DNA from: Dehalococcoidia bacterium
GTDB taxonomy: Bacteria > Chloroflexota > Dehalococcoidia > Lucifugimonadales > Australimonadaceae
Length of the DNA stretch: 64,000 nt
Direction: 5' to 3'
Assembly: GCA_965243745.1 (NCBI GenBank)
Contig: CBDEVR010000002.1
Location: 1,237,986-1,301,985 of the forward strand
The position numbers were made by a program, and so were the translations under genes. Shown piece after piece: positions 9,839 to 52,880 of this stretch. A model generated the notes under the pieces. It was not told where the DNA came from, did no database searches, and worked only from the letters and a program-made list of their open reading frames with translations. The number at the start of each line of letters is the position of its first letter. Position 1 is the stretch's first letter.

Positions 9839-10954
9839 ATGCGCGTCAGCAAGATGGAATGGCGGGGCGTCCGCGTCCCCCTGCGGCAGCCCGAGCTAGC
9901 CCTGGACCCGTCCAAGGCGGGCCGCAACGCGCTGCTCATCTGGATGCACATGGACAACGGTCTTGTGGGCGTGGGCGAGGCAGCCACCGCTGGGCCCGGA
10001 CGCCCGCCCCGCATCGCCGACCTCGCGGCGCTCCTGCACGACCTCGCCCCTTCGGCGCTGGGCCTGCACCCCGCCGTCGCCTTCGACATCCTCTCCGCGC
10101 TCGCCCCTCCCGGCTCGACCGGTAACGCGCTCCGCTTCGGGCTGGAGACCGCCGCGTTCGATGCCATGGGCAAGAACGCGGGACGCCCGGTGACCGACCT
10201 GCTCGGCGGCGTCATCGACTGGACGCCGATGGTGGGCCTGCTCGACTTTCTCCCGCCGGACGCGGCCGCGGAGCAGGCACGCGTCGCGGTGGAGGACGGC
10301 TACGAGTGCGTCAAGGCGTCGCTCGGCGCGCGTGACGCCGCTACGGATGTCGAGATCATCCGCGCCATCCGCCAGGCGATCGGCGACGACGTGGCGCTCC
10401 GCGCCGATGCGGACGAAGGCTGGACGGCGGAGCGCGCCATCCACACGGTCGAGCGGCTCGCTCCCTTCGACCTGGACTTCGTGGAGCAGCCCGTCATCGC
10501 GGAGGACATGAGCGGCCTCGCGCGCATCCGCAGCGTGTCGCCCGTGCCCATCGCCGCGGACGAGGCCGTCGGCGTGATGAGCGACGCCGTCAAAGTCGTG
10601 GAGGCGGAGGCGGCGGACGTGCTCGTGGTGAAGGCGGCGCAGGCGGGCGGCATCCGCGCCGCACAGGCCATCATGGCCTACGCCGCGCAGAACGGCCTGC
10701 GGAGCACTGTCTCCGCGTCGCTGGAAACGGGCGTCGGCATCGCTGCGGGCGTCCACCTCGCCGCTTCGCTCGGCAAGGCCGCTCCCGCGAGCCTCGGCGG
10801 AGGAGCCCGGCTTGAGTGCGACCTCCTCACGAAGCCGCTCGTCCCCGTTCGGGGGCATATCACCGTGCCGCACCTGCCCGGACTCGGCGTTGAGGTCGAC
10901 CAGGACGCGGTGGACCGCTACGCGACCGAGGTGGCCGGCGTCATCGCAGGCTAG
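9839..10954 (+). CDS. enolase-superfamily enzyme (mandelate racemase/muconate lactonizing family, OSBS or dipeptide-epimerase-like)
   Basis: Metal-ligand pattern RADADEGW, DFVEQP, IAADE typical of MR/MLE C-terminal barrel. Confidence 0.75.
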   Translation: MRVSKMEWRGVRVPLRQPELALDPSKAGRNALLIWMHMDNGLVGVGEAATAGPGRPPRIADLAALLHDLAPSALGLHPAVAFDILSALAPPGSTGNALRFGLETAAFDAMGKNAGRPVTDLLGGVIDWTPMVGLLDFLPPDAAAEQARVAVEDGYECVKASLGARDAATDVEIIRAIRQAIGDDVALRADADEGWTAERAIHTVERLAPFDLDFVEQPVIAEDMSGLARIRSVSPVPIAADEAVGVMSDAVKVVEAEAADVLVVKAAQAGGIRAAQAIMAYAAQNGLRSTVSASLETGVGIAAGVHLAASLGKAAPASLGGGARLECDLLTKPLVPVRGHITVPHLPGLGVEVDQDAVDRYATEVAGVIAG

Positions 10955-11035
10955 CCCCCGTCAGCCGTGCCTCTGCTATCATCCGCAACGGCCCGCCGGA
11001 ACCTCCCGGCCGGGCCGTCTATCGAGAGGGCAGCG

Positions 11036-12184
11036 ATGAAACTCCACGAATACCAGGCCAAGCAGTTGCTGGCCGCGTACGGCGTCCCTGTGCCGGAGAA
11101 CTACGTTGCGGCATCGGGCACCGAGGCCGCGACGGCTGCGGAGCGGCTCGGCGGCAGGGGCGTCGTCAAGGCGCAGGTGCACGCTGGCGGCAGAGGCAAG
11201 GCAGGTGGCGTGAAGGTCGCGTCCAGCCCGGCGGAAGCCGCAGAGATCGCCGGGTCGCTCATCGGTTCGACGCTCGTGACCTTCCAGACGGGGCCGCAGG
11301 GCGTGCCTGTCCACCAGGTGCTCGTCGAGCAGACGATGGATATCGAGCGCGAGCTGTACCTGAGCATCACCACCGACGGCGGGCGTCGGCGCCCGGTCGT
11401 CATCGCGTCGGCTGCGGGCGGCATGGAGATCGAGGAGGTCGCTCAGACCGAGCCCGAGAAGGTGCTCACCGAAGCCATAGACCCCGCCATCGGCTTCCAG
11501 CCATTCCAGGGGCGCAGGCTGGCCGCGGGACTCGGTCTTCCTCCTGCGCAGGTACGCCCGTTCTCCACCCTCGTGGGTGCGTGCTACCGCGCCTATACGG
11601 AGAAGGACTCCGGGATGATCGAGATCAACCCGCTCGTCCTCACGAGCGATGGGCAGTTGCTTGCGCTCGACGCGAAGATGGACCTCGACGACGACGCCCT
11701 CTTTCGCCACAAGGCGGAGGCCGGGCTGCGCGACGCCAGCCAGGACGATCCGCTCGAGGTGGAGGCGTCGGAGGCCGGCATCGCCTACGTGAAGCTGGAC
11801 GGCAACGTCGGCTGCATGGTGAACGGGGCGGGGCTCGCCATGGCGACGATGGACATCGTCAAGTTCGCAGGCGCCGAGCCGGCCAACTTCCTCGACGTGG
11901 GAGGCGGCGCCGCGGAAGAGAAGATCAGCCATGCCATCCTCCTCATGCTCTCGGACTCCAACGTCGAGAAGGTGCTGGTCAACATCTTCGGCGGCATCCT
12001 TCGCTGCGACATCGCCGCGCGGGGCATCGTGGACGCCTACGGCAGGGCCGACCGCCAACCGCCGCTCGTCGTACGGATGCTCGGCACCAATGTCGACGAA
12101 GGGAAACAGATCCTCGCCGAGTCGGGACTGACGGCGACGATGGTGGACACACTGGAAGAGGCGGCGGCGGCCATCAAGGGGTGA
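11036..12184 (+). CDS. sucC: succinate--CoA ligase subunit beta
   Basis: Internal ATG gives [23 protein letters not shown]-grasp and ligase-CoA domains ([10 protein letters not shown]). Confidence 0.95.
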
Positions 12185-12194
12185 TGGAGCAAGC

Positions 12195-13070
<876 letters not shown>

Positions 13071-13081
13071 GATAGGGGAGT

Positions 13082-13103
13082 GCAGAGGGGCGAGCCCCTC
13101 TGC
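13082..13103 (+). terminator. GC-rich hairpin after sucD
   Basis: gcagagggg-cgag-cccctctgc starts 12 nt after the stop. No U-tract. Confidence 0.4.
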
Positions 13104-13129
13104 TGCCGAAGGAGACGAGAGGCGTCGGC

Positions 13130-14314
13130 GTGGTCCTTCAGGAGTGGCAGGCCGTGAACCGTGGGGCACTGTTGGCGGAAGAGCGGCGCCGGTACGGTGC
13201 ACGCCGGCGCGCGAACCATTCGGGCGCGCTCCTGCCGGAATACCTGCTCGCGCGGCTGTGGCGAGCGAAGGAGGGGCGTTCACTGCACACGGTGGATGGC
13301 AGGCGTGTGAAGGTGCTGTACGCAGGCCGTCCCGCGCCTGGCCACGGCCCTGATTTCCAGGACGCCGTGGTCCGCATGGATGGCGAGCGCACGGCGGGGA
13401 ACGTGGAACTGCACCGTAAGCCCTCGGACTGGCATGCGCACGGCCACGATGCGGACCCGGCCTACGACGACGTCATGCTGCATGTCGTCGCGCAGGCGGA
13501 TGGTGCGGGACCCGGCGTTCCGACCGCCGAACTCAGCTGGGCTGAGCATCCCGGTACGGCTGAACCGCCGTTGATGGCGCAGCTTGCGCGAGCGTCCTCC
13601 GGCGAGCTCCGGGAGATGTTCCTACGCTCCGGCATGGCGCGCTTCCGCGAGCGCGTGGAGGCTGCGCGCCGCAGCGTCGAAGAGACCGGAGATGAGCAGG
13701 CGTTGCACGAGGCCGTCTTCGACGCCCTCGGCTATGCGGAGAACCGTGCGCCATTCCGCCGGCTCGCCGGAGCTGTTCCTGCCGTCGCGCTGCTGGGCCT
13801 GGCGCGGAGCCTCCCTGTAGACGAGCGTGCCGCAGCCCTGGAGCGCCTGCTGCTCGACGCGTCGGGACTTGACAGTGAGGCACAACGGCCTCACGGCGAC
13901 CGTCCTGCCTGGAAGACGGCAGGCGTGCGTCCGGTGAACCATCCGCGCGGTCGCATCCGCGGTGCGGCGGCCTTGCTGGCCCGTGTCTCCGAAGAGGGTT
14001 TGCTGGCTGCATGCCGACGAGCGGTTGCCGGGGGCAGCCCGGCGCTGGAGCAATTGTTCGTAGTGGAGGGTCCGGAGCAGGCGCTCATCGGCGCGGGCCG
14101 GGCAAGAGAGATCGTCGTCAACGCGGTGCTGCCGCTGCTCGCGGCGGTGGGCGACCCTCATGCAGAGGACCTTTTCATGCGATATCCGGCACTCCCTGAA
14201 AACACGCTGACCCGGGAGGCACGCCGACTTACAGGGGCGAAGGGGATGAGGCTCTCGGCGTGCGAGCAGTTGGGGCTTCTACGGCTCTACCGCGGCAGCA
14301 TCGCCGACGGCTGA
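13130..14314 (+). CDS. DUF2851 family protein
   Basis: GNVELHRKPSDWHAHGHDADPAYDDVMLHVV matches my recollection of the DUF2851 core. Confidence 0.7.
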   Translation: MVLQEWQAVNRGALLAEERRRYGARRRANHSGALLPEYLLARLWRAKEGRSLHTVDGRRVKVLYAGRPAPGHGPDFQDAVVRMDGERTAGNVELHRKPSDWHAHGHDADPAYDDVMLHVVAQADGAGPGVPTAELSWAEHPGTAEPPLMAQLARASSGELREMFLRSGMARFRERVEAARRSVEETGDEQALHEAVFDALGYAENRAPFRRLAGAVPAVALLGLARSLPVDERAAALERLLLDASGLDSEAQRPHGDRPAWKTAGVRPVNHPRGRIRGAAALLARVSEEGLLAACRRAVAGGSPALEQLFVVEGPEQALIGAGRAREIVVNAVLPLLAAVGDPHAEDLFMRYPALPENTLTREARRLTGAKGMRLSACEQLGLLRLYRGSIADG

Positions 14315-14322
14315 TCGGTCCG

Positions 14323-14892
14323 CTAGGCCGCGTAGATGAGCCGCAGCCCGCGCAGTACGAGACGGGGCAGGAATGAGAGCAGCCGGATCAACGCTGCCAT
14401 CGCAAGCGACCCCGCGACCCCGACGGCTGCCCCGGCCAGTACGTCTGTTGGGTAGTGCACGCCCGCGTAGACCCGCGCCAATCCCCAGCAGAAGGCCAGT
14501 GCGTACAACGCTCCGCCCAACCGGCGATGACGCAGGAATACGGCCGTGGCAAGCGCGAAGCCGACCGAAGCTGTGTTGGAGGGGAACGACGGGTCTGTCG
14601 GCGCATAGAAGAGTAGCGTCAGGTCGTTATCCACGAAAGGCCGTGGGCGCTCGACGATACCGTTGATGATGGTGGTGATGGCGTTGGCTGCGCCGATACC
14701 GCCCGCGGCGATCATCGTCGTGATCTGGTTCAGCGGGCGGGTCTCATGTGTGCCCGTCATCCAGAGCGCGACGAGCACCAGGCTTCCTGTCACAGGAACG
14801 AAGTAGTCGCTCACCAGCACTTCCATCACCCCGTCGAACAGAGCGACGTTGCTGACCCCCGAATTCAGAAAGCGAACTATCGCGCCGTCCAT
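14323..14892 (-). CDS. PAP2 family phosphatase (undecaprenyl-diphosphatase-like)
   Basis: Internal ATG 14892 (MDGAIVRFLNSG). PAP2 motifs RPRP, PSFPSNTASV, ARVYAGVHYPTD. Confidence 0.85.
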   Translation of the reverse strand: MDGAIVRFLNSGVSNVALFDGVMEVLVSDYFVPVTGSLVLVALWMTGTHETRPLNQITTMIAAGGIGAANAITTIINGIVERPRPFVDNDLTLLFYAPTDPSFPSNTASVGFALATAVFLRHRRLGGALYALAFCWGLARVYAGVHYPTDVLAGAAVGVAGSLAMAALIRLLSFLPRLVLRGLRLIYAA

Positions 14893-32726: not shown

Positions 32727-33218
32727 TTACCAACCTCCCCCAAGCCTCTTGAGTGCTGCGCCCGATACGCGGTATGTCGTCTGATTATCCAGCGGCACTG
32801 CGCCCAGCTTGCGGTAGAAGCCGATTGCGGAATCGTTCCAATCGAGTGCCACCCATTCGAGTCTCCCGCAGCCTCGTTCCACGGCAATCCTGCCCACATG
32901 CCGGAGGAGCGCTTCGCCGAAGCCTCGTCCGCGGTGTTCTTTCCTCACGAACAAGTCTTCCAAATACAAGCCTGGCTTACCCAGGAACGTGGAGAACGTA
33001 TGGAAGTACAGTGCGAAGCCCACTGCATTGCCCTCCGCCTCTGCAACGCACGCTTCGGCGTAGGGCCGCTCACTGAATAGCCCCAAACGAAGCTCTGCCT
33101 CGGAGGCGCTTACTTCACGTGCGAGACCCTGATGGGCCGCTAACTCACATATCAGGTTCAGTAGAACTGGCACGTCTGAAATCTCGGCGTCGCGGATGTG
33201 GAAATCACTGGGCAACAT
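32727..33218 (-). CDS. GNAT family N-acetyltransferase
   Basis: Internal ATG (MLPSDFHIRDAEISD). Acetyl-CoA motif VRKEHRGRGFGEALL. Confidence 0.85.
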   Translation of the reverse strand: MLPSDFHIRDAEISDVPVLLNLICELAAHQGLAREVSASEAELRLGLFSERPYAEACVAEAEGNAVGFALYFHTFSTFLGKPGLYLEDLFVRKEHRGRGFGEALLRHVGRIAVERGCGRLEWVALDWNDSAIGFYRKLGAVPLDNQTTYRVSGAALKRLGGGW

Positions 33219-45334: not shown

Positions 45335-45376
45335 TTGATACGGGGTATTGACAGTATCGAAGGGCAGTGCTACTGT
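45335..45376 (+). promoter_or_regulatory. putative Fur/Zur operator overlapping a promoter (copy 1)
   Basis: TTGATACggGGTATTGACA contains palindrome ATAC-N3-GTAT. -35 TTGACA (45348..45353), N17, TACTGT. ATG lies 9 nt after the -10. Confidence 0.55.
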
Positions 45377-45385
45377 CTGCCAGCT

Positions 45386-45901
45386 ATGGCGACGGTTTTC
45401 ACGAAATCTGCGAGCGCGGTCATGCAGGCTGAGTCCACCCTCCTTGCGGCCTTGGAGGAGCATGGCACCCGCATGACCTGGCCACGCCGTCAACTGGCGA
45501 GGATGCTCGCTCGGCGGACCGGCGCGTTCAGCGCTGAGGAGATCGTGGCCGGATTGCCGACTCTGGGCCGGGCGACCATCTACCGCACGCTGCGCCTGCT
45601 CGGGGATGCCGGCGTCCTCTGCAAAACCACCATGCCGGACGGTTCGCCTCGCTATTCGCTGGACAACGCACAGCACCACCATCACCTCATCTGCGTCTGC
45701 TGCGGAAGCGTAGACGAATTTCGTCACCCTTCTATCGACCAGGTGCTCCGCGCCATGAATGACCATGTCGGGAGCGAACTCGTCGGGCACCGCCTTGAGC
45801 TGTACCACCGCTGCGCTATCTGTCGCGGAGAACGGCCAGAGCGGCAAAGACGGCCACGTGCACGTGGCCCGCGTGCATGCACACTGAAACTCAACGGATA
45901 G
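45386..45901 (+). CDS. Fur family transcriptional regulator (Zur-like), copy 1
   Basis: wHTH GRATIYRTLRLL. HHHHLICVCCG and CAIC (CxxC...CxxC structural Zn site). Confidence 0.85.
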   Translation: MATVFTKSASAVMQAESTLLAALEEHGTRMTWPRRQLARMLARRTGAFSAEEIVAGLPTLGRATIYRTLRLLGDAGVLCKTTMPDGSPRYSLDNAQHHHHLICVCCGSVDEFRHPSIDQVLRAMNDHVGSELVGHRLELYHRCAICRGERPERQRRPRARGPRACTLKLNG

Positions 45902-45918
45902 CTGACGGAGGTTAACGG

Positions 45919-48303
45919 ATGAGATACGCTCTCACTAGTCTGCACAAGCTGCTCATCGCCGGGGCGCTGGCCCTGGCGATCGTCTCCTGCTCAGGGGATG
46001 CCGAGCCCACAAACACACCGGTTGGTCCCGCACCCACAGACACGCCGGTCGCTGCCGCCGAGCCGCTGAATGTGGTCGCGAGCATCTACCCGATGCAGTA
46101 CTTCGCGGAGCGTATCGGCGGCGACCGGGTGGATGTCACGACCATCGTGCGACCCGGCGTCGAGGCCCACTCATTCGAGCTCACGGCGGGCGATCTCCTC
46201 ACGATTGCCGAGGCCGACGTCATAGCGATGAACGGCCTCAGTCTGTTGCCCTGGCTGGAACGCGCGCTCGAGTCCCTGGGCGATGACGTCTCCGGTATCG
46301 TGGTCGAGGCTGCGTATCCCGAGGCGGCACTGCCCTTCGTGGAAGGCGGACACGAAGACGAACATGGGCACGGGCACGAAGACGAACACGGGCACATGGA
46401 AGAGGACGAGCACGGACACGAGGGTGAGTCAGCCTTTGACGGCCGCCTGCTGATCGCAGACCTCGAGGCGGAACACCTCTCGGTGCTCGACCTGTCAACG
46501 GAAGAACTCGACTCCGGCGCCTTCGCGATCGGTGCGCCGCCTGCTGCCATCTACCCCAGCCCGACCCACCGCTACGCCTTCGTCCTCGCCCGGGGCCCGG
46601 GAGACGCCGATGACGGCATCCACCTCTTCGACGGTGGCGTCTACCTCGTTGAGCACGGCGACCACTTCGACCTCGTGCGCGAACCGGTCTCGCGTCACCC
46701 CTCCGTGGTGATGGATGAACGGCCGATCCACTTCGTCAACAGCTACGGCTGGACGGCGATATTCGCCGACGCTCACGGCCACGTCTTCCTCTACAACGAG
46801 GAGGAGATCACCAGCACACAGGGCGACTACCGGCCGCTCGTGCTCGAGGCCGGCCCGCAGCACGGCGCCGCCCTGGCGATCTCACCCGACCACATCGTCG
46901 TGACCACCCAGAACCCCGACTACCCCGAGAACACGGACAGCACCCTGCCCGTCGGCGTTGAGGTATGGGACCTTGATGGCCACGTCCTCTACGACGCCAG
47001 TAACCGCTCCTGCCCCGGCATGCACGGCGAGACGCACAACGAGGAAGGCGCCATCTTCGGCTGCGTCGGCGGCGTGCTCTTCCTGCACCCGCACGACGGC
47101 AGCTACCATCACGACTTCATCGACAATCCCCCCGAGATGCGCGAAGAATCTCGCATCGGCTCCTTCTTCGGACACCACCACCTGCACCACTTCTTCGGAC
47201 GCGCCTCTTACCGCGACAGTCAGGGCTTCGCCGACGACGGTATCTGGCTGATCGACCCTGAAGGAGGCGAGTTCCAGCGAGTCTTCAGTGAACCGGTCGC
47301 GGCCGGAGCTGTCGGCTCGCACGCAGAGCGCCTCTACCTGCTCACCGCTGATGGCGAGCTCCACGTGCTCGATGCCCATGACGGCGATGAGATCGCACAT
47401 CTCCACGTCATGGAACCGGGCGAGGACGCGCGGCCACGCCTCATCATCGTCGGGGAGACGATGTTCCTGACGAACCCGAACCACGGTGAAGTCATCGCGG
47501 TCGACCTCGAACACCTCGAGGTGGAGGAGGTCTGGGACGTCGGAGGTTCGCCCTCCGGCATTGCCTTCGTCGGCATCCTCGGTGAAGGGGATGAGCACGA
47601 GCACGACGAGGACGAGCACGGCCATGAGGATGAGCACGACCACGACGAGGACGAGCACGGCCATGAAGACGAGCACGACCACGACGAGGACGAGCACGAC
47701 GAGGACGAGCACGGCCACGAGGATGAGCACGACCACGACGAGGACGAGCACGGTCACGACGACCACGGCCACGGCGAGTTTGATCCTCACTTCTGGCTCG
47801 ACCCGCTGCTTGCCATCACCCAGGCGGAGCGCATCGCGGAGGCGCTGATCGAGGCGGACCCCGAGGGCGCAGACATCTACCGGGCGAACCTCGCCACGCT
47901 GTCCTCTGATCTCCGGGCGCTGCACGCCGAGTTCGAGGCGGGCCTCAGTTCGTGCGTCCACCGCGAGTTCGTCACGTCTCACGCGGCGTACGGCTACCTC
48001 GCGCATGCGTACGGCCTGGAGCAGGTGCCGATCGCCGGTCTCTCTCCTGAGGCAGAGCCATCGCCGCAGCGCCTCGCGAGCATCGCCGATCGCATCAAGG
48101 ATCTCGGCATCACAGCGGTGCTCCTCGAGCCAGTGCTCTCCGGTGCGCACGAACGGTCGCTCGCCGACGAGACAGGGGCTGGCATATACCAGATCCACTC
48201 GATAGAGAGCGTTACCCTGGCTGAACTGGACGAGCACGGGGACTACTTCGGCCTGATGCGTGACAACCTGAGCAGTCTGCGAGCTGCGATGGAGTGCTCG
48301 TAG
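45919..48303 (+). CDS. ZnuA/AztC-type metal-binding lipoprotein with nested ~385-aa AztD-like beta-propeller insertion
   Basis: Lipobox LAIVSCS. N-lobe (VVASIYPMQYFAERIGGDRV) and C-lobe (GEFDPHFWLDPLLAITQAERIAEAL...) are collinear with the 49917..51218 paralogue. Residues ~171-555 are inserted between two His-rich segments. Confidence 0.85.
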   Translation: MRYALTSLHKLLIAGALALAIVSCSGDAEPTNTPVGPAPTDTPVAAAEPLNVVASIYPMQYFAERIGGDRVDVTTIVRPGVEAHSFELTAGDLLTIAEADVIAMNGLSLLPWLERALESLGDDVSGIVVEAAYPEAALPFVEGGHEDEHGHGHEDEHGHMEEDEHGHEGESAFDGRLLIADLEAEHLSVLDLSTEELDSGAFAIGAPPAAIYPSPTHRYAFVLARGPGDADDGIHLFDGGVYLVEHGDHFDLVREPVSRHPSVVMDERPIHFVNSYGWTAIFADAHGHVFLYNEEEITSTQGDYRPLVLEAGPQHGAALAISPDHIVVTTQNPDYPENTDSTLPVGVEVWDLDGHVLYDASNRSCPGMHGETHNEEGAIFGCVGGVLFLHPHDGSYHHDFIDNPPEMREESRIGSFFGHHHLHHFFGRASYRDSQGFADDGIWLIDPEGGEFQRVFSEPVAAGAVGSHAERLYLLTADGELHVLDAHDGDEIAHLHVMEPGEDARPRLIIVGETMFLTNPNHGEVIAVDLEHLEVEEVWDVGGSPSGIAFVGILGEGDEHEHDEDEHGHEDEHDHDEDEHGHEDEHDHDEDEHDEDEHGHEDEHDHDEDEHGHDDHGHGEFDPHFWLDPLLAITQAERIAEALIEADPEGADIYRANLATLSSDLRALHAEFEAGLSSCVHREFVTSHAAYGYLAHAYGLEQVPIAGLSPEAEPSPQRLASIADRIKDLGITAVLLEPVLSGAHERSLADETGAGIYQIHSIESVTLAELDEHGDYFGLMRDNLSSLRAAMECS
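47587..47775 (+). repeat. in-frame tandem repeats encoding (E/D)EH(G/D)H(E/D)D units
   Basis: Repeating gacgaggacgagcacggccatgaggatgagcacgaccac-type units coding DEHEHDEDEHGHEDEHDHDEDEH... Confidence 0.85.
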
Positions 48304-48373: not shown

Positions 48374-48730
48374 ATGAAGTGGTACGACGAACCAGAGCGC
48401 ATCGACGCAGATCAGATGCTGAACAGCGAAGCACGCGACATGAAGTGCATGGCGACCGGGCCTGGTCAGTGTGCGGACTGCTGGAAGCGGACGATCAACG
48501 GCGACTTCGTCACACCGCTTGACCCGGAGCCACACGAGTTCGAACTGGATGATCTGCTCAGCTTCGCGACTATCGCGGCCAACGCGGCAGAGCACCAGCT
48601 TGATCCGGAAGAGGCGGACGCTGAGTTCAACGCGGTGCTCGTCGACCTGGACGCGGACGATGCCAGCTTCTTGGCGGATCTGGTGCTCTACCAGTTGACT
48701 GAATGTCCCATCGGCAGATGCCGGCGCTGA
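48374..48730 (+). CDS. hypothetical acidic protein with Cys clusters
   Basis: GGAGG SD; GC3-rich codons. CMATGPGQCADC near the N-terminus and ECPIGRC at the C-terminus. Confidence 0.6.
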   Translation: MKWYDEPERIDADQMLNSEARDMKCMATGPGQCADCWKRTINGDFVTPLDPEPHEFELDDLLSFATIAANAAEHQLDPEEADAEFNAVLVDLDADDASFLADLVLYQLTECPIGRCRR

Positions 48731-48806: not shown

Positions 48807-48992
48807 ATGGCAGATCTGACGGCCTATTCGGTGAAACTGAGGAAGATGGTGGTCATCAAGGACCCCGAGTTGATAACGCTGAAGAACGGAGCAAAGGCGG
48901 TCCGCGGCGTAGCGGCGGAGGACCCGTCCAGCAAGGTCTTCAAGATTCTGAGCGCCAAGCAGGCGGAAGAGGTTGGAGCGAAGCTCGGCTGA
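48807..48992 (+). CDS. small protein (61 aa), Cys-free DUF5679-like, copy 1
   Basis: AAGGAAGGAGG SD. MADLTAYSVKLRKMVVIKDPELITLKNGAKAVRGVAAEDPSSKVFKILS. No Cys or His. Confidence 0.7.
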   Translation: MADLTAYSVKLRKMVVIKDPELITLKNGAKAVRGVAAEDPSSKVFKILSAKQAEEVGAKLG

Positions 48993-49122: not shown

Positions 49123-49311
49123 ATGGTAGATCTGACGGCCTATTCGGTGAAGCTGAAGAAGATGGTGGCCATCAAGGACCCGGAACTGGTAACCCTGAAG
49201 AACGGGCGGAAGGCAGTCCGCGGCGTAGCGGAAGAGGACCCGTCCAGCAAAGTCATCCGGATCGTGAGTGACAAGGACGCGGAAGAGATCGCAGGCGCCC
49301 TGCGCCGGTGA
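49123..49311 (+). CDS. small protein (62 aa), Cys-free DUF5679-like, copy 2
   Basis: AGGAGG SD. 45 of 61 aligned residues identical to 48807..48992 by hand count. No Cys or His. Confidence 0.7.
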   Translation: MVDLTAYSVKLKKMVAIKDPELVTLKNGRKAVRGVAEEDPSSKVIRIVSDKDAEEIAGALRR

Positions 49312-49349: not shown

Positions 49350-49392
49350 TTGATACCAAGTATTGACTGTTGCCGCGGAAGGCAGTTACCTT
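49350..49392 (+). promoter_or_regulatory. putative Fur/Zur operator overlapping a promoter (copy 2)
   Basis: TTGATACcaAGTATTGACT (ATAC-N3-GTAT). -35 TTGACT, then TACCTT. ATG lies 7 nt after the -10. Confidence 0.55.
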
Positions 49393-49399
49393 CTGCTCT

Positions 49400-49897
49400 A
49401 TGACGATGATTACCGGCAAGCCCGCCGCGGCGGCCGCGCAGGCCGAGTCCAACATCCTCGCGGCGTTGGAGGAGCATGGCAGTCGCATGACGTGGCCTCG
49501 CCGTGAGCTCGCTGCGATGCTCGCCCGGCGGACGGACGCTTTCAGCGCGGAGGAGATCGTCGCCGGCTTGCCCGGCTTGGGGCGGGCGACGATATACCGC
49601 ACGCTGCGCCTGCTCGTGGAGGTCGGCATCCTCTGCAAGACCGTCATGCCGGACGGCTCGCCGCGCTACTCCCTGGACGATGCACATCATCATCACCACC
49701 TCGTCTGCGTCGCATGCGGACGCATCGACGAGTTCCGCCACCCCTCGGTCGAACGGATGCTCCGGGCCATGAAGGACCACGTGCAGGGCGAACTCATCGG
49801 CCACCGACTCGAGTTGTACCACCGTTGCGGTGACTGCCAGGAAAGCGGACACGGCGCGGAGCCGCACATGCACGGGACCCACGTACACGCCCATTAG
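49400..49897 (+). CDS. Fur family transcriptional regulator (Zur-like), copy 2
   Basis: GRATIYRTLRLL, HHHHHLVCVACG, CGDC. His-rich tail GHGAEPHMHGTHVHAH. Confidence 0.85.
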   Translation: MTMITGKPAAAAAQAESNILAALEEHGSRMTWPRRELAAMLARRTDAFSAEEIVAGLPGLGRATIYRTLRLLVEVGILCKTVMPDGSPRYSLDDAHHHHHLVCVACGRIDEFRHPSVERMLRAMKDHVQGELIGHRLELYHRCGDCQESGHGAEPHMHGTHVHAH

Positions 49898-49916
49898 GGG
49901 CCGGGGAGACTGTTTG

Positions 49917-51218
49917 ATGAGACTCCATCTCGTAACGTCGTTTCGCGTGTTTGCCGCCGGATTGCTCGCCCTGGTGGTTGTCGCTTGTTCAGCTGACCCC
50001 ACGCCCACGTCTGCGCCTGTTCCGGGCGTCCCCACGGCCACTCCCACCGAAGCGCCCCTCGAGCCGCTGACCGTGGTCGCGAGCATCTACCCGATGCAGT
50101 ACTTCGCCGAGCGCATAGGCGGCGACAGGGTGAACGTCGTCGCCCTCGTGCCCCCCGGCGCAGAGGGTCACACGTTCGAGCTCACGGCGCGCGACCTCAT
50201 CACGATCGGCGAAGCCGACGTCATCGCGATGAACGGCCTCGAGATGGAGCCGTGGCTGGAGCGCGCGCTCGAGTCCCTGGGCAACGACGTCTCCGCCATC
50301 GTGGTCGAGGCAGCCGATGCGGAAAGCGCGCTGCCCTTCGTAGAGAGTGGGGATGCACACGGTCACGAGGATGAGGACGAGCACGACCACGACGAGGATG
50401 AGCACGACGACGAGGATGAGCACGACCACGACGAGGACGAGCACGACCACGACGAGGATGAGCACGACCACGACGAGGACGAGCACGACCACGACGAGGA
50501 TGAGCACGACCACGACGAGGACGAGCACGGCCATGAGGATGAGCACGACCACGACGAGGACGAGCACGACCACGACGAGGATGAGCACGACCACGACGAG
50601 GATGAGCACGAACACGAGGACGAGCACGAACACGAGGACGAGCACGGCCATGAGGAGGACGAGCACGGCCATGACGCCCACGCCCACGGCGAGTTCGATC
50701 CGCACTTCTGGCTCGACCCGCTGCTTGCCATCACCCAAGCGGAGCGCATAGCCGAGGCGCTCATCGAGGCGGACCCCGAGGGCGCCGACGTCTACCGGGC
50801 GAACCTCGCCGCGCTGAGCGACGACCTCCGGGCGCTGCACACCGAGTTCGAGGCGGGCCTCAGCTCGTGCGTCCACCGCGAGTTCGTCACGTCGCATGCC
50901 GCGTACGGCTACCTCGCACTGGCGTACGACCTGGAGCAGGTGCCGGTGGCTGGCCTCTCTCCGGACGCAGAGCCATCGCCGCAGCGCCTCGCGAGCATCG
51001 CCGACCGCATCAACGACCTCGGTCTGGGAGCCATACTCGTGGAGCCTGTGCTTGCCGGTTCACACGAGCAGACGCTCGCCGCTGAGACCGGCGCAAGCGT
51101 CTACACGATCCACCCGCTGGACGGCATTACCCAGGCAGAACTGGACCAGCACGGAGACTACTTCGGTCTGATGCGCGACAACCTCAACAGCCTCCGCACT
51201 GCGCTGGAGTGCTCGTAA
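49917..51218 (+). CDS. znuA: zinc ABC transporter substrate-binding lipoprotein ZnuA with giant H/D/E loop
   Basis: Internal ATG 49917 (MRLHLVTSFRVFAAGLLALVVVACS lipobox). Cluster A-I SBP lobes. Followed by znuC and znuB. Confidence 0.9.
   Translation: MRLHLVTSFRVFAAGLLALVVVACSADPTPTSAPVPGVPTATPTEAPLEPLTVVASIYPMQYFAERIGGDRVNVVALVPPGAEGHTFELTARDLITIGEADVIAMNGLEMEPWLERALESLGNDVSAIVVEAADAESALPFVESGDAHGHEDEDEHDHDEDEHDDEDEHDHDEDEHDHDEDEHDHDEDEHDHDEDEHDHDEDEHGHEDEHDHDEDEHDHDEDEHDHDEDEHEHEDEHEHEDEHGHEEDEHGHDAHAHGEFDPHFWLDPLLAITQAERIAEALIEADPEGADVYRANLAALSDDLRALHTEFEAGLSSCVHREFVTSHAAYGYLALAYDLEQVPVAGLSPDAEPSPQRLASIADRINDLGLGAILVEPVLAGSHEQTLAAETGASVYTIHPLDGITQAELDQHGDYFGLMRDNLNSLRTALECS
50349..50690 (+). 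repeat. 21-nt in-frame tandem repeat array encoding EHDHDED units
   Basis: gacgaggatgagcacgaccac-type unit repeated about 14 times with minor variants. Encodes residues ~145-258, made of H/D/E with a few G/A. Confidence 0.9.
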
Positions 51219-51240: not shown

Positions 51241-52062
51241 ATGGATGACACGCCGGCAATCGAACTGGAAGACGTCTCCTACACGTATGCGGGCGCCCCG
51301 GCGGTGCACGGCGTGACGCTGCGCATCAAGCGCGGGGACTTCACGGCTATCGTCGGCCCCAACGGCAGCGGAAAGAGCACGCTCATCAAGGTCATCCTGG
51401 GGCTCATCAAGCCGGACAACGGAAGCGTGCGCGTTTTCGGCACCGACATCGAACGGTTCAGGGACTGGCATCGCATCGGCTACGTCCCGCAGGTGGCGGC
51501 GGGCATCCACGCCATGTTCCCCATCACGGTGAGCGAGGTCGTCGCGCACGGCCGGTACACCGGCTTCTCGCCGTTCGCGTTCTGGCGCAGGAACGGCGCG
51601 GACGTGGACGACGTCCTGAAGATGGTCGACATGGCGGACTTCAAGCGCCGCCGCATCGGTGAACTCTCCACCGGCCAGCAGCAGCGCGCCCTCATCGCCC
51701 GTGCACTCATCCGCAAGCCGGACCTGCTCGTCATGGACGAGCCCGTCGCGGGCGTGGACGTCCAGGGCGGGGAAGAGGTCTACACGCTGCTCCGCGAACT
51801 CCGGGAGAGCGGCGTCACCATACTCATCATCTCCCACGACGTCGGCGCCGTCATGCGCGAGGCCTGCACCGTGGCATGCATCAACTGCACGCTCCTCTGC
51901 CACTGCCCGCCCCACGAACTGACCGAGGACGACCTCGTGCGCCTCTACGGCTTCCCGGTTGAGGTGTTGCACCACGGTGAGCACCACGACCACCACGCGC
52001 ACGGCGAAGACGCCGTCCGCCACGGCGAGTTCGACCAGCTTGCGCCCCACGCGCACCACTGA
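51241..52062 (+). CDS. znuC: zinc ABC transporter ATP-binding protein with His-rich C-terminal tail
   Basis: GPNGSGKST, LSTGQQQRA, LLVMDEP. Tail HHGEHHDHHAHGEDAVRHGEFDQLAPHAHH. Confidence 0.9.
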   Translation: MDDTPAIELEDVSYTYAGAPAVHGVTLRIKRGDFTAIVGPNGSGKSTLIKVILGLIKPDNGSVRVFGTDIERFRDWHRIGYVPQVAAGIHAMFPITVSEVVAHGRYTGFSPFAFWRRNGADVDDVLKMVDMADFKRRRIGELSTGQQQRALIARALIRKPDLLVMDEPVAGVDVQGGEEVYTLLRELRESGVTILIISHDVGAVMREACTVACINCTLLCHCPPHELTEDDLVRLYGFPVEVLHHGEHHDHHAHGEDAVRHGEFDQLAPHAHH

Positions 52063-52067
52063 TCTCC

Positions 52068-52880
52068 ATGCCGGCCATCCTGCAATACGACTTCATGGTG
52101 CGCGCCCTCATCGGGGGGGTCCTCGTCGGCGGCCTCGCGCCCGTGCTCGGCACCTTCCTCGTGCTGCGCCGCTTCTCGCTGCTCTCCGACACGCTCGCGC
52201 ACGTCGCGCTGTTCGGCGTTGCCGTCGGATTCGCAGTGAACGTTTACCCGACGCTCACCACGTTCATCACGGTCACCTTGGCCGCGGTTGTGATGGAAGG
52301 GCTGCGCTCGCGCGGCAAGCTCCCCGGCGACGCCGTCCTCGCAGTCGCGCTCTACTCCTCGCTCGCCGCGGCGGTGGTTGTCATCAGCGCCGCGCAGGGG
52401 TTCAACGTGGACCTGCTCAGCTTCCTCTTCGGCTCCATCCTCACCATCACCGAATTGGACCTCTGGCTCATCGGAGGGCTGGCGCTCTTCGTCGTCATAG
52501 GCGTGACGGCCTTCTTCACCGAACTCGCACAGACCTCGTTCGACGACGCGCTCGCCCGCGTCTCCGGCATCAAGGTGGACTGGGTCAACTTCGGGCTGGC
52601 AGTGCTCGCCGCCGCCACCATCACCCTGGCCATGCGCATCATGGGCGTCCTGCTCGTCGGTGCGCTCATCGTCATCCCTGTCCTCGTGGGGCAAGGGCTC
52701 ACGAACAGCCTGCGTACCGCGTTCATCGTCGCATCGGGCGTGGGGATGGTCAGCGCCGTTACCGGCCTCACGCTCGCCTTCTACCACGACCTTCCGGGCG
52801 GCGGATCGATCGTGCTCACTGCCGTGGCCATGCTCGTGCTGTCCATAGCCTGGCGCAGGTTCCGCCGGCGCTCCTCGTAG
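52068..52880 (+). CDS. znuB: zinc/metal ABC transporter permease
   Basis: 270-aa polytopic ABC-3 type permease directly after znuC. Confidence 0.88.
   Translation: MPAILQYDFMVRALIGGVLVGGLAPVLGTFLVLRRFSLLSDTLAHVALFGVAVGFAVNVYPTLTTFITVTLAAVVMEGLRSRGKLPGDAVLAVALYSSLAAAVVVISAAQGFNVDLLSFLFGSILTITELDLWLIGGLALFVVIGVTAFFTELAQTSFDDALARVSGIKVDWVNFGLAVLAAATITLAMRIMGVLLVGALIVIPVLVGQGLTNSLRTAFIVASGVGMVSAVTGLTLAFYHDLPGGGSIVLTAVAMLVLSIAWRRFRRRSS

Follow-up and report, generated by a model that had tools for sequence, protein, structure and literature searches.

We found that a gene in a 64,000-nucleotide stretch of DNA from a Dehalococcoidia bacterium (contig CBDEVR010000002.1; henceforth the window, to which coordinates refer unless another locus is named) encodes a zinc-type substrate-binding protein (SBP) of the ZnuA/AdcA/YcdH kind whose histidine-rich loop is split by a complete AztD-like beta-propeller. 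AztD is known as a separate periplasmic zinc chaperone; here the chaperone-like domain and its presumptive acceptor form one polypeptide. On the evidence below, the protein is likely to be a membrane-anchored lipoprotein SBP of a zinc ATP-binding cassette (ABC) importer with a built-in zinc chaperone, a reading that comprises tethered capture of zinc, its intramolecular hand-off, Zur-like repression of the gene and evolution of the propeller as a cassette. The fused architecture is widespread rather than rare, yet unannotated. What is new besides the architecture is that, judging by region-wise sequence identities, the history of the propeller differs from that of the lobes that host it.

The fused gene and its surroundings are laid out in Table 1. 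An earlier reading of this DNA, made from the sequence alone and without database searches (the sequence-only reading), had claimed a single uninterrupted lipoprotein frame of 794 codons. The frame is indeed open throughout, and its signal peptide ends in the lipobox IVSC, whose cysteine (Cys24) is at least 90% conserved in an alignment of 90 fused homologues that also underlies the conservation figures given below. The same reading had placed the insert exactly where ordinary ZnuA proteins carry their flexible loop, and the His-rich loops of YcdH, AdcA and ZnuA do align to the splice point. Both borders of the insert consist of tandem His-codon repeats. The GC content of the insert (0.654 overall and 0.834 at third codon positions) matches that of the flanks, and tblastn found one copy of the propeller in the window and no standalone copy.

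The assignment of the insert to the AztD family, which the sequence-only reading had proposed, was borne out by profile, sequence and structure comparisons. Specifically, the insert aligns with positions 3-354 of the 356 in the NCBIfam AztD profile NF038015 (E 2.5e-40, 138 bits), and the only PDB sequences that it matched in a phmmer search were those of crystallised AztDs (6cmk, E 1.5e-19; 6ck1, E 1.6e-16). Pfam returned nothing for the insert alone, and weak PQQ_2 or Cytochrom_D1 matches were seen in some homologues. To our knowledge Pfam holds no AztD model, which explains why the propeller has been left unannotated. We then turned to structure, as the earlier reading had suggested. An AlphaFold2 model of the fused protein, built on the 90 homologues (mean predicted local distance difference test score, pLDDT, 76.8; predicted template modelling score, pTM, 0.53), contains a confident alpha/beta SBP and a confident all-beta domain of about 34 strands at residues 173-554, with disordered linkers at residues 134-171 and 556-617. 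When this model was compared with the PDB using Foldseek, AztD chains filled ranks 1-9 (E 3e-26 to 2e-21, target template modelling (TM) score 0.79-0.83), followed by ZnuA-type SBPs (Lbp, Lmb, AdcA, YcdH and ZnuA; about 1e-13) and generic propellers (about 1e-11). The eight-bladed AztD fold of 6CK1 and 6CMK is thus assigned here by structural match rather than by a count of blades.

The residues that make AztD a zinc protein are also in place. We mapped them by counting through the PDB alignment from the Paracoccus denitrificans protein (PdAztD), in the numbering of PMC6689063. Zinc site 2 of PdAztD (H99/G100/H102/D104) corresponds to H246/G247/H249/D251 of the window protein, within the hairpin H246-G247-D248-H249-F250-D251; the HGDHF element that the sequence-only reading had named as typical of AztD is therefore this very site (H99-G100-D101-H102-R103-D104 in PdAztD; PMC6689063). 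Site 1 (H124/H167/H218) corresponds to H271/H315/H369 and the disulfide C214-C231 to C365-C382. Among the 90 fused homologues H246, D248, H249, D251, H271, H315, H369, C365 and C382 are all invariant; G247 is not on this list. The fourth ligand of site 2 in AztD is the C-terminal H408, which is conserved in 68% of AztDs. The nested propeller has no free C-terminus, and linker 2 of the window protein begins at the would-be position of H408. All 90 homologues have a histidine 5-15 residues past the invariant G552, at a variable offset. Given that the ligands and the structure agree with AztD, while the score falls short of the NCBIfam equivalog cutoff and the domain is nested within an SBP rather than being a separate secreted protein of an aztABCD operon, we file the insert, on the strength of its predicted features, as an AztD-like domain and not as an AztD equivalog.

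The two lobes around the propeller belong to a canonical zinc SBP. Pfam ZnuA (PF01297) is matched in two stretches of the fused protein with 242 bits against a gathering cutoff of 29, and the lobes align end to end, once the insert is removed, with Bacillus subtilis YcdH (1e-46), the ZnuA-like domain of Streptococcus pneumoniae AdcA (1e-44) and Synechocystis ZnuA (5e-36). In the AdcA alignment, H84, H624, H688 and E751 fall on the motifs TEPHEYE, FDPHVW, VTQHAAF and LSKEAG, and all four are invariant in the homologues; this set is of the zinc type (three His plus Glu/Asp) and not of the manganese type (two His, Glu and Asp). The fused protein falls short of the more specific NCBIfam models for AztC (NF040870; score 157, cutoff 350) and AdcA (NF033605; score 139, cutoff 700), and neither Pfam nor NCBIfam detected a ZinT domain in the window protein. 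By these alignments the host classifies as a cluster A-I SBP of the ZnuA/AdcA/YcdH type and a member of Pfam ZnuA, with its loop split by a complete AztD-like propeller. The linkers that remain of that loop are rich in His, Asp and Glu and span roughly 30 and 60 residues in the window protein; between conserved anchors their median lengths are 44 and 46 residues in the homologues, all 90 of which keep at least 3 His in each linker (medians of 7 in linker 1 and 11 in linker 2).

Table 1 Fused gene, its parts and neighbouring features in the window
Feature	Positions	Strand	Evidence or remark
Fused SBP open reading frame (ORF)	45919..48303	+	Uninterrupted, 794 codons plus stop
Signal peptide and lipobox (residues 1-24, I21-V22-S23-C24)	45919..45990	+	Sequence
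ZnuA/AdcA-type SBP N-lobe (residues 48-143), metal ligand H84	46060..46347	+	Pfam ZnuA; YcdH/AdcA/ZnuA alignment; model pLDDT 75-96
His/Asp/Glu-rich linker 1 (residues 144-170), N-terminal half of split His-rich loop	46348..46428	+	18/24-nt tandem repeats
Tandem repeats encoding linker 1	46347-46419		
AztD-like beta-propeller (residues 171-556)	46429..47586	+	NCBIfam, PDB sequence, model, Foldseek
Propeller site 2 (H246/H249/D251), site 1 (H271/H315/H369), disulfide pair (C365/C382)	within 46429..47586	+	Residue positions verified
His/Asp/Glu-rich linker 2 (residues 557-617), C-terminal half of split loop	47587..47769	+	21/39/54-nt tandem repeats
Tandem repeats encoding linker 2	47589-47773		
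SBP C-lobe (residues 618-794, plus stop), ligands H624, H688, E751	47770..48303	+	Pfam; paralogue and PDB alignments
Propeller-less paralogous SBP, 433 aa	49917..51218	+	BLASTP, Pfam
ABC ATPase (znuC)	51241..52062	+	Best NCBIfam model AztA, below cutoff
ABC-3 permease (znuB)	52068..52880	+	Best NCBIfam model AztB, below cutoff
Fur-family metalloregulator 1	45335..45901 (mechanical ORF; likely true start ATG 45386)	+	Pfam FUR PF01475, E 2.9e-25
Fur-family regulator 2, paralogue of regulator 1	49370..49897 (likely start ATG 49401)	+	Pfam, DNA match
Candidate operator, TTGATAC-GGG-GTATTGACA	45335..45353	+	GATAC-N3-GTAT inverted repeat over TTGACA -35-like hexamer, upstream of regulator 1
Candidate operator copy 2, TTGATAC-CAA-GTATTGACT	49350..49368	+	Upstream of regulator 2
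Acidic Cys-containing 118-aa ORF	48374..48730	+	Conserved downstream of fused SBP
Small 61-aa gene, copy 1	48807..48992	+	Conserved downstream of fused SBP in G1-type loci (lineage G1, see text)
Copy 2 of the small gene, 62 aa, with 75% identity to copy 1	49123..49311	+	Weak DUF5679 match (PF18930, E 0.0057, below cutoff)

The window also holds a second SBP of the same kind, without a propeller (henceforth the plain paralogue). Its loop consists of about 110 residues of His, Asp and Glu, for which a 21-nt repeat present in 15 copies (50373-50676) codes. BLASTP aligned it with the fused protein in two collinear blocks, as the sequence-only reading had anticipated; the peptides quoted there are shared exactly, whereas its description of the flanks as nearly identical overstated the case for the N-lobe (67% identity over residues 1-144, compared with 82% over residues 616-794). 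At the DNA level the two genes are part of a segmental duplication of a module made of a Fur-family regulator and an SBP (45416-46428 vs 49430-50420, 74% identity; 47589-48302 vs 50498-51217, 86%), and the two borders of the insert mark exactly where homology between the modules breaks off.

To compare the history of the propeller with that of its host, we calculated region-wise identities from the 90-protein alignment, in which the lobes fall into three lineages (G1-G3). Between these lineages the lobes are 31-41% identical and the propellers 63-78%. Among the subgroups of G1 the order is reversed, with lobes 75-83% identical and propellers 51%, i.e., below the propeller identity between G1 and G2 or G3. 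Differences in evolutionary rate were considered as the cause of these figures and rejected, since the pattern is non-monotonic and is accompanied by a sharply bounded conversion tract (see below). The identities thus point to separate histories for propeller and lobes.

Individual G1 loci, which contain two paralogous backbones (alpha and beta), illustrate how the propeller may have moved. The window carries a propeller of type I on its alpha backbone (the fused gene) and none on its beta backbone (the plain paralogue), while at locus L016 these states are swapped, with the type I propeller on beta and a plain alpha. Two beta-backbone proteins from sister loci, L001_A (the first copy at its locus) and L003_A, have lobes that are 98-99% identical and propellers that share 48% identity, being of type II and type I, respectively. 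Conversely, L003_A and its tandem neighbour L003_B have propellers that are 99% identical on lobes that are 78-82% identical. In DNA identity the two L003 genes (9977..12226 vs 12417..14753) range from 61-84% in the N-lobe to 93-100% from amino acid 144 to 560 and 68-91% in the C-lobe, a profile that marks a gene conversion tract coinciding with the propeller, with apparent breakpoints in the His-codon repeats. As for the plain paralogue of the window, its five closest beta-backbone orthologues in other genomes all have a propeller (5/5), so by parsimony it has probably lost its own secondarily.

Donors for such exchanges can share one genome, as single genomes hold two or more fused SBPs: the 2,381,319-bp sequence OZ241740.1 carries two of different lineages at separate loci (P0017 and P0052), and OZ219765.1 has fused SBPs at loci L040 and L048. 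With the His-codon repeats on either side of the propeller as homology arms, paralogous SBP genes could acquire the cassette, exchange it, duplicate it or lose it. In its broadest form, this proposal holds that the AztD-like propeller is a mobile domain cassette that has been copied, replaced, tandem-duplicated, combined with ZinT and deleted in the loops of deeply divergent lineages of zinc SBPs (at least three), across Chloroflexota and Actinomycetota, that the His-rich loop is a docking port for chaperone domains, and that the resulting proteins are natural tethered donor-acceptor pairs. We consider this broad form evenly poised between right and wrong.

The fused architecture is common in public data. 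A word-indexed search of protein clusters (E <= 1e-10) returned at least 418 homologous clusters, and each of the 120 clusters listed (696-1376 aa, at least 696 bits, from NCBI, ENA and JGI, on contigs of up to 5.9 Mb) has the order N-lobe, propeller, C-lobe. In a scan of one genome per species we found 259 stretches encoding relatives, many of them on complete chromosomes (2-6 Mb). We fetched the best 80 of the 259 and called their ORFs anew: almost all come from metagenome-assembled genomes of Chloroflexota (Dehalococcoidia, SAR202, Caldilineaceae), and a nested SBP is present at every complete locus among them. At about 35 loci, an operon with a Fur-family regulator, znuC and znuB has no SBP other than the fused protein, often with overlapping stop and start codons. 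Beyond Chloroflexota, the Actinomycetota chromosome OZ243930.1 (Candidatus Spongiisociaceae, Acidimicrobiia; L062) carries a fused SBP followed by znuC and znuB, with 41% identity to the window protein. A fused SBP with 78% identity to the window protein lies on a 19-kb contig binned as Candidatus Palauibacter (L009), which suggests either mis-binning or recent transfer. Many carriers appear to be sponge-associated symbionts, as read from taxon and bin names alone.

In every source, the fused proteins are annotated as 'zinc ABC transporter substrate-binding protein' or as 'ZnuA'. The sequence-only reading knew of no description of this architecture, and in this it stood: we found no publication that describes an AztD-SBP fusion, the AztD papers included, in a search of literature outside subscription journals. 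The architecture is nevertheless abundant in public data under the name ZnuA.

An exhaustive HMMER search with the propeller alone gave 303 clusters (E <= 1e-10), mostly standalone proteins of 400-470 aa. Nested ZnuA[AztD] arrangements recur in distant propeller lineages at 30-45% identity (P0126, P0131, P0150, P0153, P0162, P0173 and P0208); in P0152 both ZinT and AztD apparently lie inside a split ZnuA, and fusions of ZinT to AztD are seen in P0176 and P0186. Two tandem AztD-like propellers occupy the loop in P0011, P0013-P0016 and P0020-P0022 and at loci L034 (9125..13381) and L044 (9251..13318), in proteins of 1216-1418 aa. Two further variants were seen in passing. P0158 is an FG-GAP/ASPIC protein with an AztD-like match, and a subfamily of about 940-990 aa (P0043, P0063, P0068, P0076 and others; e.g., L019, L022 and L023) has about 200 extra N-terminal residues ahead of the N-lobe, for which Pfam gave no match.

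In the window, regulator 1 ends 17 nt ahead of the fused gene. An inverted repeat upstream of both regulator genes is a plausible operator for the co-encoded Fur-family protein, with the candidate sequence TTGATACnnnGTATCAA. Its common form at the two window promoters is TTGATAC-N3-GTATTGAC(A/T), and in other lineages it takes the form of a perfect palindrome, TGATAC-N3-GTATCA. At about 25 related loci (L001-L016, L019, L023, L038, L046, L050 and L056) the element is found right in front of a regulator or fused-SBP gene, with 35 matches in 1.6 Mb against about 2-3 expected by our own estimate from base composition; in frequency as well as in specificity of position it goes well beyond chance. 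This operator and its regulator may respond to zinc, and regulator 1 is a probable Zur. A third GATAC-N3-GTAT match in the window (CCCGATACGCGGTATGTC, 32764..32775) lies far from the zinc genes and is probably due to chance.

Directly downstream of the fused SBP, the 118-aa ORF and the duplicated gene of about 61 aa are conserved in at least 10 related loci, and homologues of the 118-aa ORF (65-78% identity) occupy the matching position at 10 related loci. Neither Pfam nor NCBIfam matched the 118-aa ORF or assigned a function to the small genes, the sole match being the sub-threshold one to DUF5679. These genes may belong to the same regulon as the fused SBP. We also noted a His-rich tail at the C-terminus of the ABC ATPase (...HHGEHHDHHAHGEDAVRHGEFDQLAPHAHH), and regulator 2 ends in ...GHGAEPHMHGTHVHAH; both are possible cytoplasmic metal-sensing tails.

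How the fused protein might work can be proposed from its separately studied relatives. AztD passes zinc associatively from site 2 to the SBP AztC, whose flexible His loop is needed for the transfer, and site 2 is built on an extension of the N- and C-terminal strands of AztD together with a hairpin (PMC6689063, PMC7463823). In the window protein the AztD termini are the splice points to the SBP loop, so that site 2 would be tethered next to the acceptor site. We propose that the linkers and the propeller would capture scarce Zn(II) at the cell surface, that zinc would pass intramolecularly from propeller site 2 to the SBP site (H84/H624/H688/E751), and that the SBP, once loaded, would dock on the ATPase and the ABC-3 permease. 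Repression of the gene would come from the Fur-family (Zur-like) protein encoded just ahead of it, acting through the GATAC-N3-GTAT(C) operator, which overlaps the -35 element. A precedent for such a built-in aid is AdcA, where ZnuA is fused to ZinT and the recruitment of zinc under limitation is helped by the loop together with the accessory domain (PMC7858048).

Several observations weigh against this proposal. Zinc binding, its stoichiometry and its transfer are extrapolated to the fused protein from homologues, and the homology of the propeller is distant: it shares about 22% identity with the crystallised AztDs and scores 138 bits where the curated cutoff of NF038015 is 400. In the model, the site-2 hairpin has a pLDDT below 50 and the pTM of 0.53 leaves domain orientation undefined, so the proximity of donor and acceptor is read from topology and not from the model. 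The published docking model, in which the AztC loop threads the pore of AztD, does not apply unchanged, because the propeller cuts the loop and the window loop cannot thread it; the transfer geometry may therefore differ. In the window, the fused gene does not adjoin the permease and ATPase genes but precedes the plain paralogue's operon by 1.6 kb. Finally, NCBIfam matches of the regulators are limited to Fur, PerR and Zur models, all below their cutoffs, and on these matches the regulators are not assignable to Zur over Fur or PerR.

Other explanations were weighed against the same data. The propeller and linkers could be no more than a zinc antenna, buffer or store, with the SBP site loading from solution and no hand-off from site 2. 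The abundance of histidine in the linkers speaks for this, as do the double-propeller variants, which resemble increases in capacity, and the conservation of site 1, for which no function is known in AztD (PMC6689063). We nevertheless regard it as unlikely, given that direct associative transfer from site 2 has been demonstrated for AztD and AztC (PMC6689063), that the site-2 ligands are all invariant in the fused homologues and that the termini on which this site is built are the same ones that join the propeller to the loop. It is a good deal less probable still that the propeller serves a purpose other than zinc handling, for example the binding of host or matrix proteins, as in the SBP-adhesins Lmb and Lbp, or that the system transports another metal (Mn, Fe or Ni). 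In favour of this reading, beta-propellers often serve as interaction scaffolds, the structural matches of the lobes include Lmb and Lbp, many carriers are sponge symbionts to judge by their names, and the regulators can be placed no further than the Fur family. Such a role would leave the invariance of both AztD zinc sites and of the disulfide unexplained, and among NCBIfam models AztC fits the SBP best, AztA the ATPase and AztB the permease.

An assembly chimera joined through the His-codon repeats had been raised in the sequence-only reading as one way in which its proposal might fail, and we weighed a decaying pseudogene created by such a join along with it. Tandem repeats such as those at both junctions are classic sites of misassembly. 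As an account of the architecture the chimera was rejected, because the nested order is shared by hundreds of independent assemblies: it recurs in 120/120 listed homologues from three sources of assemblies and at 80/80 fetched loci, many of them on complete chromosomes. The uninterrupted frame, the flank-like composition and the strict conservation of functional residues speak equally against decay, and we give this explanation next to no weight.

In function, the fused protein looks like AztD and AztC of the P. denitrificans importer AztABCD (PDB 6CK1, 6CMK, 6N01 and 5W57) joined in one chain. The window propeller is like AztD in fold (TM about 0.8), in the His triad of site 1, in the H-G-D-H-x-D hairpin of site 2 and in the disulfide. 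As in that system, it is paired with a zinc SBP of cluster A-I that has a flexible His loop; for AztC, this loop is indispensable for transfer. AztA and AztB are the nearest counterparts of the window ATPase and permease, and the context is likewise one of Fur-family regulation. By contrast, AztD is a separate periplasmic protein, whereas the window chaperone is nested in the loop of its acceptor within one polypeptide; the low propeller identity and the sub-cutoff scores against the AztD and AztC equivalog models also set the two systems apart, the SBP lobes resemble YcdH and AdcA more than they do AztC, and a long His-rich linker begins in place of H408, the C-terminal ligand of site 2.

AdcA of S. 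pneumoniae (a ZnuA-like domain followed by a C-terminal ZinT; PDB 7JJ9), of all characterised analogues the closest, is likewise a surface lipoprotein in which a zinc SBP is fused to a zinc-recruiting domain. It shares with the window protein a homologous SBP domain, a site of three His and a Glu, a His-rich loop at the domain interface and the rationale of keeping a chaperone with its SBP. It differs in the accessory fold (a lipocalin-like ZinT domain instead of an AztD beta-propeller) and in topology, being fused end to end via an 11-residue linker, whereas the propeller is nested and splits the loop. ZinT and AztD do occur together in the distant relatives P0152, P0176 and P0186 mentioned above. 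Classical ZnuA/YcdH proteins (Synechocystis 1PQ4 and 2OV1, B. subtilis 2O1E, Escherichia coli 2OSV), to which kind the plain paralogue belongs, agree with the fused protein in their two-lobe fold, ligand positions, loop position and operon partners, and differ in that the loop of the fused protein holds a folded domain of 385 residues.

The transfer from AztD to AztC is one of the few direct protein-to-protein zinc transfers that have been demonstrated, and its complex is transient and known only from docking. A natural single-chain version would offer a way to trap and measure the hand-off, because the chaperone is spliced, via the strands that build the transfer site, into the loop essential for transfer; if the propeller is indeed a cassette that yields tethered pairs, the transient complex could be captured structurally. 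Fusion of a chaperone to a zinc SBP has arisen at least twice, with different folds and topologies (AdcA-ZinT end to end, AztD nested), and the signs of gene conversion offer a concrete case of low-complexity codon repeats serving as arms that shuffle a whole domain. Given that all sources call these fused proteins plain 'ZnuA', the capacity of Chloroflexota for zinc acquisition is under-described.

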